From Octopus sinensis (Eukaryota): 64,000 bases of DNA. The DNA lies in the NCBI RefSeq assembly GCF_006345805.1, contig NC_043011.1:3596001-3660000 (forward strand), given 5' to 3'. This document shows positions 1,021 through 58,565 of this stretch, piece by piece; within the stretch, counting starts at the first letter, position 1, and every line of letters starts with the position of its first letter. Below the pieces are notes generated by a model. It made no database searches. It was not told the origin of the DNA and saw only the letters and a program-made list of their open reading frames with translations. The position numbers were made by a program, and so were the translations under genes.

Positions 1021-1192
1021 TCGAAATACAAGAGTAGAAAAACAGCCAACAACTGATGAAGGGTCGTTCTTTATGTTGTTTGTCTTGTTTTCCCTTTGTG
1101 TCTTTTGTTGTTCAAAATAGTTCATATTCCATGTACTCATACTTCACATTTTTTGTTGTACATGTTTCATGATGTCCTGTGCCCACATTTAC
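1021..1192 (+). mobile_element. Short PLE-derived fragment in (TA)n with a partial hammerhead core
   Basis: Flanked by (TA)n on both sides; CTGATGAAGGG at ~1053 with no GAAA half; T-rich tail. Confidence 0.4.
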
Positions 1193-1206
1193 ATATATAT
1201 ATATAT

Positions 1207-1712
1207 ACTAGCAGTATCACCCGGCGTTGCTCGGGTTTGTAAGGGAAATAACTATATAAGCATTTTAGAGAGTTACTTCCCTTATAGATGCCAATTCGGG
1301 CTTTCTTAGCCATTTCTGTTTTGGTGTCTTCAAGCCATGAAGTCGTTGTTCTAATAGAACGCTGGTCTCCTTGACAACGCTTTACGACGTTGATTTCCTT
1401 ACACTCCCTTCCCCACAGCTTCACGAGGGAGGGAAGAAGGGGAAGAAGCAAACAGGTGCAGGTGTGACCATGGACGCCAACTCCGCCGCCATCGACACAC
1501 GAAAAATTATGCATTAAAATGGAATAAAAAATGATGTTAAATTATTTTTAAAATCGTAGACTCATCGTAGACGCACGCTAATATTCAGACAGGCTCGATA
1601 TGAATCACGACTATAAGATACCCGAATTTAGTTAAACTGCACCGCAAAATGTGGGAGTAGTTAGGAATCTAAATCGAAGGGGACAGACACTCACACAACT
1701 ACAGTTTTATAT
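1207..1712 (-). mobile_element. Non-autonomous Helitron
   Basis: Minus strand begins TATATATAAAACTG and ends in the hairpin CCCGAGCAACGCCGGG followed by CTAG|T, a typical Helitron 3' end. Confidence 0.7.
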
Positions 1713-1790
1713 ATATATATGTACCGATGTAAGTATGTACATACACGTATGTATATATGCATATATATATATGTATATAGATATATATAT

Positions 1791-2043
1791 ATTAATGGGG
1801 AAGGTCGATTTATGGGATTGCTGTGACTTTCCCATCCATAAAGAGTTTAGCTTTATGACATATCATTAGACCCCAAAACCTGCTGGCTCACAGGTTTTGG
1901 GGTCTGACGATATGCTATTAAGCTAAACCCATTATGGATGGGAAACCCATGGCAATCTCATAAACCTGCCTTCCCCATTAATATATAATCTGCTCTACAT
2001 CTTAGAGTGTGCTTCTTCTCAGGATTTATGTTTTATACAAACG
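1791..2043 (+). mobile_element. PLE-derived fold-back element with a degenerate hammerhead
   Basis: 92-bp imperfect arms 1791-1882 and 1891-1982, unpaired 3' tail to 2043, (TA)n flanks; GGGGT-CTGACGA(1904)...GAAA(1942)...ATCTC. Confidence 0.65.
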
Positions 2044-2051
2044 ATATATAT

Positions 2052-2603
2052 ATATTAGAAATATTGAATTTCTAAATGTCTCAGAGAGACATAAGCGGTG
2101 GTGGAGCGATATAGTGGTCATATACTGTCAACTCAATGTGACAGTCCCATAAGGGAATTACACCACCACCATTTAGCCCTAGGAAACATCAATGTCTCCT
2201 GTCGGCTTTGACACATTTTCTCTGCCCTTATATTTGCAAAGGGGAGGCAATCACCCCCGCAAGCCGGGACAAGGCACCTGAAGACATATGTTTCTGAGTG
2301 TATTGCTCATCGTCAGTTCAGGGTAGCCTGCCTCGCTCGCTGAGATGACTGCAACCTCTCTGTAAATATATCATATTATCAGTAAAATTTATTTACTGAT
2401 CACCGAAATTAGAAATATAAGAAGACAGAATATAAGAACAAATATAAGGCAAATATAAGGACACAAAAAATAAGGTAAATATAAGGACACAGAAAATGTG
2501 TCAAAGCCGACAGGAGACGTTGATGTTTCCTAGGGCTATATAGCGGTGGTGTAATTCCCTTACGGGACTGTCACATTGAGTTGACTGTATACGACCACTA
2601 TAT
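2052..2603 (-). mobile_element. PLE-derived element with an inverted 5' duplication
   Basis: ~127-bp inverted arms 2109-2235 and 2477-2603, tail 2052-2108, internal hammerhead, (TA)n flanks; relative at 58321-58565. Confidence 0.75.
2277..2322 (-). ncRNA. Minimal type I hammerhead ribozyme, canonical core
   Basis: Minus strand: CCUGAA CUGACGA UGAG caauaca CUCA GAAA CAUAUG UC UUCAGG. Stems I and II are perfect, stem III is palindromic, cleavage triplet GUC. Confidence 0.85.
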
Positions 2604-2659
2604 ATATATATATATATATATATATACATACATACATACACTAGTTTCAAGAATTTGTC

Positions 2660-55129: not shown

Positions 55130-56580
55130 TATGAACTCCCATCCAACACCCACCTCTTTTTCCTGAATGATGTCCTTCTCAATTCCTCTAAGTAAATCTG
55201 TTTCCTCCCACAATCTCCAAACCTCTCCCTATCACTAACACTCTTTGCCCATAATTCTTCCTGCATCAAGAATATCTACCTCTTTCTGATTTAATCATCC
55301 ACCATGACTTCAGTGCTCACATTTATCCCATTCTGATGTGATACTATTCAGCAATCAGATAGTTTATATTCTTCAACTACCTCCGATGATTGAATTTGTC
55401 CCCAATTTACATCTCCGATGAACATGCATATAGAGACACAGGCATGTTCATCTGTACGCATGCACAAACACTAAACAACCAACACATACATGCAAACAAA
55501 AAATACCAAGACAAGCTGGAAAACACACACTTCTGCAAAGATGCAAGAGGATATGTAATGCCAATATTAGTAAAATAAATAACATTGATCTCTTTATTGC
55601 CCCTAAACCTATCCTCTACGAAATTATAATTGTCTCTCTGTCCCTATTTCATCATCTGAACGTTGCTTTAGCATGACTTCTCACATCCACATTCCATATA
55701 ACCTCCCTCATCTCAAATATAATGGTTCTGTAACCAGAAATCTCAGGAAGAAAGACTTCACATCTACTTAGTTCTATAGAAAATACTTTCACATTTACTG
55801 ACAATTTTGAATCCAGCCCTTCAGGGTCACACTGGTGGAGATCTTTTCTGTAACTCTTCCATTCCTCTCATCTAGATTCACTGCTCTGTACAGACACACA
55901 GCAGGTATGAAATTAACTACTTCCTGACAATATCGCTTCCTTTATCCTCAAACAATGCAAACAGCCATCCTTATCAAACTTTTCAGTCTCTGTCCCAATC
56001 TTTATAAACACATTTCTCAGGCCAGCCACTCTGGCCTTGCCAGTTACCATCTATTGCACCCTCTTCCAACATCTGATAGATTATGGAGAGTACCATTAAT
56101 AACAATCTCCTCCAGTTACTTGACTCTTTCTCTCTCCCTCTCCCCCTCTCTCTCTCTCTTTCTTTCTCTTCTCAGTTACTACCGATATAACTTCTCAAAG
56201 AGAAATCTGTTGGAGGACCACTCCACTAATTATTCAGCAGTGTGCCCTCACCCTCAAGAAATTTGATGAAAACAATTATTCCACTCTGTATCAGCAAAGC
56301 ATTTAACTGTGCTCCACAAGGAAATTACTTGGCAAAACTGCCTCCCTATGGGCTCCATTCATCTAACTTCATTAGGTCAGTAGCTTCTTTTCAGCTCTGA
56401 CCATCATAGCATGTGCTGATGGCACTCTTTCTAATCCACATTCCATCTGCTGTTGTGTGGGACATCATTTGATTTACTTCCCTACACTCTCTCTCTTAGT
56501 CATCAGTAAAGTAATTTCCATCACTTCTACACCTTACATTCCTCACTAAACTCCAACATCCAGTCATCAGCCATATGTAA
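55130..56580 (+). pseudogene. Old CR1/Jockey-group LINE RT relic
   Basis: ISKAFNCA...LLGKT/LPPYG remnants near 56290-56360 resembling DxxKAFDxV...LLxKLxxYG; heavily decayed. Confidence 0.5.
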
Positions 56581-56582
56581 GT

Positions 56583-56992
56583 TACTCTCTCTTTTCTCTT
56601 TTACTCGTTTCAGTCATTTGACTGTGGCCATGCTGTAGCACCGCCTTTAGTCGAGACAATCGACCCCAGGACTTATTCTTTGCAAGACAAGTACTTATTC
56701 TATCGGTCTCTTTTGCCAAACCGCTAAGTTACAGGGACGTAAACACACCAGCATCGGTTGTCAAGGGATGTTGGGGGGACAAAGACAGACACACAAACCC
56801 ATACGCACACACATATATATATACATATATATGATGAGCTTCTTTCAGTTTACATCTACCAAATCCACTCACAAGGCTTTGATCAGCCTGAGGCTATAGT
56901 AGAAGACACTTGCCCAAGGTGCCATGCAGTGGGACTGAACCCAGAACCATGTAGTTGGTAAGCAAGCTACTTACCACACAGCCACTCCTGCG
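56583..56992 (-). mobile_element. SINE family C
   Basis: Full family C layout. Confidence 0.9.
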
Positions 56993-57021
56993 TTAGGGAC
57001 CTTATGCAAAACTTACCCTGA

Positions 57022-57720
57022 CATACTTCTTGCAGAGAAAGGGTGGATAAGGTCATAGAGGTAGTCAGAGTGAGTGATAAAGTGCTTAATCTCAGGTTAG
57101 TCTTGCAGAATAGCATAGCATCACAGAACTCCAGTAGCCTTGTTCCTTCTTTGTTTCATGAACCAATTCCATGGCCTCCATGTACAGCATGGAAAATACT
57201 GGGCTGCCATCTGACATGCCCATTGAAGTCCCCAGCCATGAGGATGAGATCCTTGTCATTCGTTTTTGAGGTAGCTTGCAGGTGAATATCATAAAAATGG
57301 TCCTTCTGTTCATTTGGTAGGCCTGCTTGTGGGGTAGAGGCAGGGATAATTGATGCTATGCTATTCTGCAAGACTAACCTGAGATTAAGCACTTTATCAC
57401 TCACTCTGACTACCTCTATGACCTTATCCACCCTTTCTCGGCAAGAAGTATGCCCACACTGCCTACCCCATCACTGTTACCTTCCCAGAAGATTTTATAC
57501 CTATGTGTCTTGCCTGTGAGGAACCTGGTCAAAGCTCCTCCCCACCTTACTTCTTGCATGCAGCATACATCAACATCCGTCCTTTGAAGCAGCTCAACAA
57601 TCTCATTAGACCTACTTTAACAGTGCCTACATTAACAACATGCTGCATAAAATCATAATTAACTGGTCCTCCTGCACTTTCTTTTACATAATGCCTGGAA
57701 CTTTTCAGTACCCACTTGTA
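57022..57720 (-). pseudogene. RTE LINE AP-endonuclease relic with an inverted duplication
   Basis: DKVIEVVRVSDKVLNLRLVL...PQAGL...ILMAGDFNGHV...HGGHGIG; 102-bp inverted copy at 57022-57123. Confidence 0.8.
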
Positions 57721-58320
57721 TTTAACACAGCAAAGTCTAAAACCAAAGTCTAAGCCCTCTTTAATTCTTAATACCCTGCCAGGTTCAGATGATGGCCACA
57801 ATGGAGTGCGATCAACACATCTGATATATTGCATTCACAGACAGTCCTCGAACTGATTGACATGAAGTCACTCACTGACACACTCTAACCTTTGGCCCAC
57901 AGGCACAGTGTTGCCACTCTTTGATTTTCCTAAACTACAACAATGTGCACAACTACATTGGTCCAAGCTTCAAGAAGGTGACCCCTTCTTGTACCACTTC
58001 TACTCAAGTACTCATCACTTACTTATCTTTCCCCTTCTCATTGTATTGTTTTACCCCTCCAAACCTCATACTAATCCTTACAACCAGTCCTTTATTTCTC
58101 ACAACTTCGACCTTCTGAAATTTCTTCTCTTCACATGTGTTTCCTGCAACAATCAACTTGTGACTCTTCTAGAGGAACATTAACCTTATTAGTCTCACCA
58201 GGGGTATAACCCCTTTCCTTCACACCAAACTGAAACATGAGAATTCTTCTCACCAGTGACTTAAATATTTTTTTATTTCCAAGTTTTGTACAGTTTTTTA
58301 AGAAATATACTTGTTATAGT

Positions 58321-58565
58321 ATGGTTGTATACTGTGTCCTTATATACATTTACGAAGGGGGAGTTTGTCTCCCCTTCGTAAATGTATATAAGGACACAGG
58401 AAAAATGTGTCAAAGCCATCAGGAGGCGTCGATGCTTCCTAGGGCTAAACAGCGGTGGTGTAACCCCCTACTGTTACGTTCACGTTAGATTGACAGTATA
58501 CAACCATTCTATCGCCCCACCACCGTACATATCTCTATAAGAGATTTGGAAATTTGATATTTCTG
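58321..58565 (+). mobile_element. Truncated fold-back copy of the 2052-2603 family
   Basis: 29-bp perfect hairpin stem 58332-58399, then sequence homologous to 2477-2600 and to the reverse complement of 2056-2110. Confidence 0.75.

Follow-up and report, generated by a model that had tools for sequence, protein, structure and literature searches.

Penelope-like elements (PLEs) of the Hydra clade almost always insert in (TA)n, and their inverted copy, tail and (TA)n targeting are described by Craig 2021 (PMC8557442), whose supplement includes a (TA)n-targeted, hammerhead-bearing octopus Hydra element, Hydra-1_Obim (here and below, statements about the literature, negative ones included, refer to the passages of the cited papers that deal with these features). 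In other PLEs the GIY-YIG endonuclease (EN) nicks AT-rich DNA on both strands, and the reverse transcriptase (RT) starts inside the RNA at two sites flanking the tail (Frangieh 2024). We analyzed 64 kb of Octopus sinensis DNA (the window; contig NC_043011.1, positions 3596001-3660000, in a 2.72-Gb assembly), for which an original prediction had proposed many PLE families or retrozyme-like derivatives in the form of short, hammerhead-bearing fold-back elements at (TA)n tracts. By their sequence, the window's elements are the 3' ends of Penelope-like retroelements. We hold, with a probability of roughly 0.85, that they are the 5'-truncated 3' ends of many PLE families, six of them joined to RT or GIY-YIG coding sequence, and that the shortest copies of one family, C, are likely reverse transcripts of a 5' leader RNA that starts at a promoter in the element's own terminal repeat and has been spliced. 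The anatomy, the minimal hammerheads and the (TA)n targeting were already known, and the published octopus Hydra element makes the proposal that such elements are uncharacterized in cephalopods weaker than stated; what is new, and goes beyond the known, is the spliced copies of family C and the hammerhead cores with a G3:C8 pair or with U at core position 6 (U6).

Families were lettered by the start of their window copies (listed below) and searched for in the rest of the genome. The searches gave 292 to 3477 first-look candidates per family, of which 40 were scored, and at this depth all nine families searched (9/9) are multi-copy. Six families (C, I, D, E, F and M) are joined elsewhere in the genome to PLE coding sequence on the same strand, which, together with the copy numbers, upholds the PLE part of the original prediction. 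In family D, copies at 99% identity lie downstream of an open reading frame (ORF) for RT and GIY-YIG (loci L220, L232 and L343); this ORF has a CX4CxxC linker after the RT and a GIY-YIG domain with CCHH (L065, L232), and L232 is near full-length but frameshifted. Family C is contiguous in L106 and L315 with a GIY-YIG-type ORF having CxCX5C, CxxC and CxH (motifs read in L009/L106), and family I lies in L228 downstream of a Hydra-type RT/EN ORF with the same three motifs; neither has CCHH. The linked copies of C and I are 5'-truncated, and as counterparts of the N-terminal Hydra-clade motifs RWK and DKT, RWA and DKT were seen only in an unlinked relative (L233). Longer copies of family E hold RT and EN remnants (L302-L304), and E, F and M all have decayed RT or EN remnants upstream on the same strand. 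Judged by these motifs, C and I are Hydra-type, and E, F and M are Neptune-type, as is D. The family I ORF (L228:5746-7476, minus strand) has a long asparagine-rich stretch between RT and EN; N-rich inserts have been reported in rotifer Penelope ORFs (Arkhipova 2013).

Like Hydra-clade PLEs, C and I combine a GIY-YIG-type C-terminal EN (CxCX5C, CxxC, CxH, no CCHH), a hammerhead near the 3' end, (TA)n targeting, an inverted truncated copy and a tail; unlike them, they have 3' untranslated regions of 1.5-2.2 kb and, in C, a tail of ~75 nt. Their hammerheads are others than the one listed for Hydra-1_oBim (compared by partial sequences). Family D resembles Neptune-clade PLEs in its RT, its linker (CX2-5CxxC in the clade), its GIY-YIG with CCHH and a tail equal to the ORF leader, an assignment by motifs that would also allow Nematis; a U3:A8 core in D and a U6 core in E set these families apart from that clade. 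The window's motifs share with the minimal PLE hammerheads of Cervera 2014 (PMC4209133) a short helix I, an optional bulge after A9, a palindromic helix III, many families per genome, inverted pairs and, as in Schistosoma, a U3:A8 variant, whereas for families with G3:C8 or U6 cores we found no natural report there. The features of the window are as follows.

1022..1192, plus strand: family J, a T-rich repeat end amid TA tracts, with CUGAUGA only (3 other copies).
1794..2020, plus: family A, an old fold-back of ~190 bp with a decayed hammerhead (1899-1962, from the family alignment) and a tail of ~40 nt (1981-2020).
2056..2410, minus: family B, a complete 355-nt non-coding, retrozyme-like unit with an intact C3:G8 hammerhead (2277-2322) and a tail of ~55 nt (family loci).
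2477..2598, plus: family B, inverted 5'-truncated arm that stops at the tail-less 3' end, with (TA)n next to it (arms 93% complementary).
24825..24987, plus: family K, a hammerhead-less, very short 3' end and tail whose arms have 23 nt; it is related to family I (ends ~81% alike) and is 92% to L223.
25008..25281, minus: family C, inverted arm with an intact hammerhead (25200-25260) and a tail of ~75 nt (25008-25083).
25279..26510, plus: family C, Hydra-type PLE 3' region with the putative intron kept and an intact hammerhead (26349-26409), contiguous with the ORF in L106 and L315.
25372..25399, plus: family C, putative 28-nt exon 1 from the initiator-like TTAGT, the probable transcription start (from the 5' limits of junction copies).
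25400..26341, plus: family C, putative 942-nt intron, AAG/GTACGT to TTTTAG/G, ending 7 nt ahead of helix I (from junction and retained matches).
26553..27045, plus: family D, a young Neptune-type PLE 3' end, a near-perfect hairpin with a U3:A8 hammerhead (26916-26953) and a tail (27014-27045).
27108..27301, plus: family M, a hammerhead-bearing 3' end, core at 27145 (84% to L308, where it lies downstream of a Neptune-type EN remnant).
27314..27500, plus: family E, a PLE 3' end with a family core in U6 (CUGUNGA), further decayed in the window copy (RT/EN remnants in L302-L304).
28418..28596, minus: family F, an old PLE 3' end with a decayed hammerhead, core at 28566 (same-strand EN remnant upstream in L306, L307).
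36180..36400, minus: family G, an element of ~215 nt with an intact minimal hammerhead (36281-36315); no ORF link found.
37568..37700, plus: a putative half motif (one 70% homologue).
37915..38115, plus: family H, an element of ~200 nt with a G3:C8 covariant hammerhead (37933-37973); ORF link unestablished.
44324..44551, plus: family I, a Hydra-type PLE 3' end, with the core and helices II and III intact and helix I damaged in the window copy (97% to L228).
58316..58564, plus: an old family B fragment at 76% identity, covering unit positions 153-354, accompanied by a tail and by short inverted pieces; no hammerhead.

Many family C matches break at one point just ahead of the hammerhead. At this break position 25399 joins 26342, and the 942 nt between them, bounded by AAG/GTACGT and TTTTAG/G, are gone; the GT-AG ends and their exact joined form are thus both present in genomic copies. 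Searches with exact patterns gave 37 junction and 57 intron-retaining matches, with 0 for the reversed controls (about 32 junction and 46 retained loci after neighbours were merged by hand; the two patterns are unequal in strictness, and diverged copies are missed by both). In one further insertion a second donor, CTG/GTAAGT, located ~130 nt past the ORF stop, is joined to the same acceptor; 14 G/GT sites lie upstream in L107, and the two used (GTAAGT and GTACGT) are strong donors. Upstream of the junction, homology ends 11-33 nt from the donor (30 of the 37 matches fetched; 29 nt or less in 28/30), where it could have run more than 100 nt further, and the 5' limit at 28-29 nt is the initiator-like TTAGT. 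An 8-nt length variant of helix II is found in 10/26 junction copies, and the retained copies of the same young group divide into 6 short and 7 long (counted after removal of 4 junction and 6 retained rows that were second arms, and of rows lacking the 3' anchor). In a tree of 51 rows the junction and retained states are interleaved. In fold-backs whose two arms both extend to the acceptor, the state of the arms is always the same (17/17 pairs: 8 spliced/spliced, 9 retained/retained and 0 mixed). Taken together, the exact junctions, the second donor, the 5' wall and the shared arm state make spliced sense RNA the likely template of the junction copies, and the missing segment is likely a spliced-out intron.

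The closest described precedent is Penelope of D. virilis (Schostak 2008, PMC2377424; Cervera 2014, PMC4209133), which likewise has a terminal-repeat promoter, a short first exon and an intron ending at helix I; its intron has 75 nt, compared with 942 nt in C, and intron retention in its genomic copies has been discussed, whereas C has both retained and spliced forms. An intron with spliced genomic copies goes unmentioned in the treatment of the Hydra clade by Craig 2021 ('spliced' occurs 0 times in its main text), and we found no report of spliced or intronless genomic PLE copies in the literature, though further PLE papers and repeat libraries could contain some. Two single cases stand beside these results. 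The window copy at 25279 and L109:2990 are independent C insertions in which truncation and inversion fall on one and the same base, 93 nt ahead of the putative transcription start, possibly marking a second start site; and at L028:1502 (L225:7314) GC-rich non-element sequence abuts C exactly where the splice acceptor lies, which may reflect either a foreign exon that was spliced on and then retrotransposed or a copy truncated at this base. A common apparent start at C2550 was explained as an indel among subfamilies, and splicing in G or H was unsupported.

In the model that we propose, the family C promoter would give an RNA with the order cap, 28-nt exon, intron, hammerhead, tail and ORF. 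Priming at the tail of spliced RNA would lead to ~270 nt being copied back to the cap and thus to an intronless mini-element from which most of the promoter has likely been lost; unspliced or read-through RNA would yield intron-retaining copies like that in the window, and these alone would keep the promoter. A single sense RNA would template both arms of a fold-back. PLEs are noted for keeping introns; Arkhipova 2013 proposed an antisense template as the reason and left the matter open, and Craig 2021 calls PLE intron retention of 'significance unknown'; the C junction copies bear on this point and run contrary to the antisense-template idea. We consider it probable that PLEs retrotranspose spliced sense RNA in vivo, that ~4 in 10 ends of one Hydra-type family are intronless, leader-only copies reaching back to the transcription start, and that introns are retained because copies with the promoter are selected, not because the template is antisense. 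If so, spliced sense RNA is a PLE template, one RNA makes both arms, and a PLE promoter has been mapped from DNA alone.

Hammerheads were sought with a strict type I descriptor (a Watson-Crick 3:8 pair, a bulge allowed, at least 4 pairs in helix II, at least 3 in helix I, and a palindromic helix III spacer), composed after the motifs had already been seen. In the window 6 intact motifs satisfy it (cores 2316(-), 25254(-), 26355(+), 26919(+), 36311(-) and 37936(+)), whereas all 30 block-wise dinucleotide shuffles of the window gave 0, one of the controls by which the original prediction was to stand or fall; five shuffles of a 400-kb sample likewise gave 0 motifs with a paired 3:8. (A first, looser descriptor gave 5 matches, of which 47204 is likely chance.) The original list of motifs holds in large part. 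Besides the intact motifs, those at 1899, 27375, 28524 and 44431 failed the descriptor in the window copy and have hammerhead-like cores in the alignments of families A, E, F and I, of which they are decayed copies, and a motif at 27145 (family M) had been overlooked. The two half motifs are unsupported as ribozymes: the downstream GAAA missing at 1053 (family J) is absent from 3/3 other copies too, and 37572 has a single homologue, at 70%, without GAAA.

The proposed density of one motif per 6-7 kb fits the window (~6 kb) and does not extend to the genome. In 60 systematically placed 10-kb stretches (600 kb) we found 6 intact motifs, from 4 insertions, one of them doubtful, that is ~1 per 100 kb (Poisson 95% range 0.4-2.2) versus 9.4 per 100 kb in the window; the 40 kb adjoining the window hold 1 intact motif, and the window's own families have 10 matches in 400 kb. 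Extrapolation gives roughly 27,000 motifs genome-wide (10,000-59,000), and counts made with other descriptors are ~9,000 in Xenopus and 4,000 in coelacanth (Cervera 2014, PMC4209133) and more than 6,000, in 16 families, in coral (Cervera 2020, PMC7229834); in giant squid 235 Rfam hammerheads have been counted. The window is therefore a hot spot in a genome whose number of hammerheads is high but puts it in no new class. Enrichment at chromosome ends was rejected, since 200 kb sampled from 20 contigs, at a distance of 3.6 Mb from their starts, contained 0 intact motifs. Two further hammerhead families turned up in the systematic sample, with the spacers CCTAGG (L328:1959) and CACGTG (L345:2729-2906), the latter in a near-perfect fold-back.

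The motifs at 26913 and 37929 are irregular in look. Family D has U3:A8 in 35/35 cores read and family H has G3:C8 in 19/19 readable cores (23 copies), so that on alignment evidence both cores are intact family-wide covariants and not decay, and this 3:8 covariation suggests selection for an active fold. U3:A8 is known from Schistosoma PLEs (Cervera 2014, PMC4209133) and elsewhere (Perreault 2011), and an engineered G3:C8 double mutant partially rescues the anole PLE ribozyme (Frangieh 2024); we found no report of a natural G3:C8 hammerhead in the literature, nor of a U6 family in its passages on PLE hammerheads. In family E and its relatives, core position 6 is U (CUGUNGA) in 29/32 readable cores (48 copies), with position 7 varying. 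Because changes at A6 lower hammerhead activity (Perreault 2011), the ribozyme may have been weak or dead while this large family spread, which would agree with the finding that cleavage is dispensable for PLE insertion in vitro (Frangieh 2024). We predict that the hammerheads here are weak, dimer- or protein-assisted ribozymes, and with the core variants the need for cleavage by PLE ribozymes could be tested on natural sequences. Relatives of family G have C at core position 4 (CCGACGA) in 6/28 readable cores (L107, L162, L259, L279, L300 and L316).

All six fold-backs said to share one architecture are present, with reservations for two of them: 24825 (K) has arms of just 23 nt, and both it and the 58316 piece (listed at 58321) lack a hammerhead, the latter being an old (76%) fragment of the 2052 family (B) with no TA tract at its site. 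An inverted 5'-truncated copy accompanies the insertion at 12/25 loci in B, 50/90 in C, 7/25 in D and 9/20 in I (overlapping loci unmerged, here and in the TA counts for these families). Families A, B, C and I have two fixed 3' ends, with or without the tail, and in a tandem copy of D (L221) the family's 32-nt tail forms the leader that precedes the start codon of the ORF, as expected if RT initiates internally on the RNA at two sites (Frangieh 2024). The siting at (TA)n stood for all intact motifs, 6/6 having (TA)4 within 230 nt downstream (background 0.19 within 300 nt), and proved to depend on the family: C 89/90, D 25/25, I 19/20 and B 12/25 loci, and, under a different rule, G 30/34, E 37/48 and H 11/23. 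Copies of G have a common 5' limit at CATTC, with weaker limits in E and H, partly an effect of query selection.

Non-autonomous, retrozyme-like derivatives formed part of the original proposal, and by its layout family B, alone in the window, looks like such a unit. As in non-LTR (long terminal repeat) retrozymes (Cervera 2020, PMC7229834; Li 2026, 10.64898/2026.07.22.740005), B has 355 nt, no coding capacity, a type I hammerhead and head-to-tail junctions, the start of the unit being preceded by the unit's own 3' end in 21/25 loci, in one through the cleavage site; unlike them, it has a PLE tail and inverted arms, and despite the resemblance it lacks the tandem layout expected of a retrozyme (at least two full units, each with a hammerhead), since the 25 loci contain 1.0 to about 1.6 units and 0/25 have two full ones (40 of 292 candidates scored). 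Between the B arms, at 2410-2477, a single ~20-nt piece of the unit recurs several times as if stuttered, which suggests repeated re-priming. An ORF beside a B copy (L032/L219) was rejected as its partner, since it lies beyond the TA tract and resembles the partner of family F, and a 37-nt mini-intron in B was unsupported.

That the mini-elements at large are independent retrozymes, propagated through ribozyme-cut circular RNAs and borrowing only enzymes from PLEs, would suit the B unit and the 21/25 loci that pass its boundary, the published derivation of retrozymes from PLEs (Cervera 2020; Li 2026), and families A, B, G, H and J, for which a link to an RT/GIY-YIG ORF is unestablished. Such circles sit poorly with six families that run on into PLE ORFs, with copy 5' ends away from the cleavage sites, with 0/25 B loci having two full units, and with the anole PLE, where uncut RNA is the main template (Frangieh 2024); we regard this origin as improbable for the set and, for B alone, as an even prospect. 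Were the fold-backs MITE-like (miniature inverted-repeat) DNA transposons or assembly artefacts and the hammerheads chance matches, one could understand why family A, in the manner of a palindromic MITE, has matches on both strands along ~190 bp (78 matches at 72-83% identity among the 40 scored candidates) and why an Rfam scan has no hammerhead among the 150 matches listed of 258, where microsatellite hairpins dominate; the empty window shuffles, the unequal and variable arms, the one-sided tails, the ORF links and the family-wide covariation largely refute this, and we give it next to no weight. Several results do weigh against our own account, in addition to the five unlinked families. The Pfam matches of D (RVT_1 E 2.8e-6, GIY-YIG E 2.5e-4) are both just below the curated cut-offs, the EN of C has no Pfam match, and in Atlas GIY-YIG is on 11% of members, a lead only. 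Single motifs fold no better than shuffles (z -1.68 to +1.24), so the case for them rests on core pattern, conservation and covariation, and in predicted dimers helix III is paired across strands only in C, D and partly B and G, of 7.

The splicing part of our account faces its own counter-evidence. Both junctions have 3-4 nt of microhomology, so that template jumps could account for them; the 51-row tree is too star-like to demand that spliced copies arose more than once; four presumed-RNA runs, with fragmented contigs, held no exact donor-acceptor joint and one uncertain joint (25315-26340); and in family D a pattern blind to exons with A at -4 revealed no spliced class (of the 22 upstream contexts that were non-standard, 20 are point variants), for which reason a splice acceptor at helix I of D was dropped. 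The tree's compatibility with one origin, the missing RNA joint and the AG/GT at both ends of the lost segment would all be in keeping with PLE ends in which the C junction arose by a single DNA deletion or an RT template jump at the AGGT microhomology, the short copy then multiplying as a non-autonomous subfamily. One such event would hardly produce two different consensus donors with one acceptor, an 8-nt helix II variant common to junction and retained copies, or a 5' wall at an initiator-like site 28 nt from the donor, and we judge it quite unlikely beside reverse transcription of spliced RNA.

Six different PLE ends (K, C, D, M, E and F) are crowded into one 3.8-kb part of the window (24825-28600), with TA tracts between most of them, and F adjoins a fragment of what we take to be a LINE-like (long interspersed element) ORF (27607-28413, minus strand). 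Elsewhere in the window, 15100-15600 (plus strand) is the decayed remnant of a Hydra-type RT, matching L233 at 40% along 82 aa (E 3e-9), with a TA tract downstream at 15803; no hammerhead was seen in the remnant. An inverted pair at 45152-46959, near-identical repeats of ~400 nt in opposite orientation, 0.9 kb apart, is unrelated to the PLE ends and presumably resembles common repeats of the SINE (short interspersed element) type.

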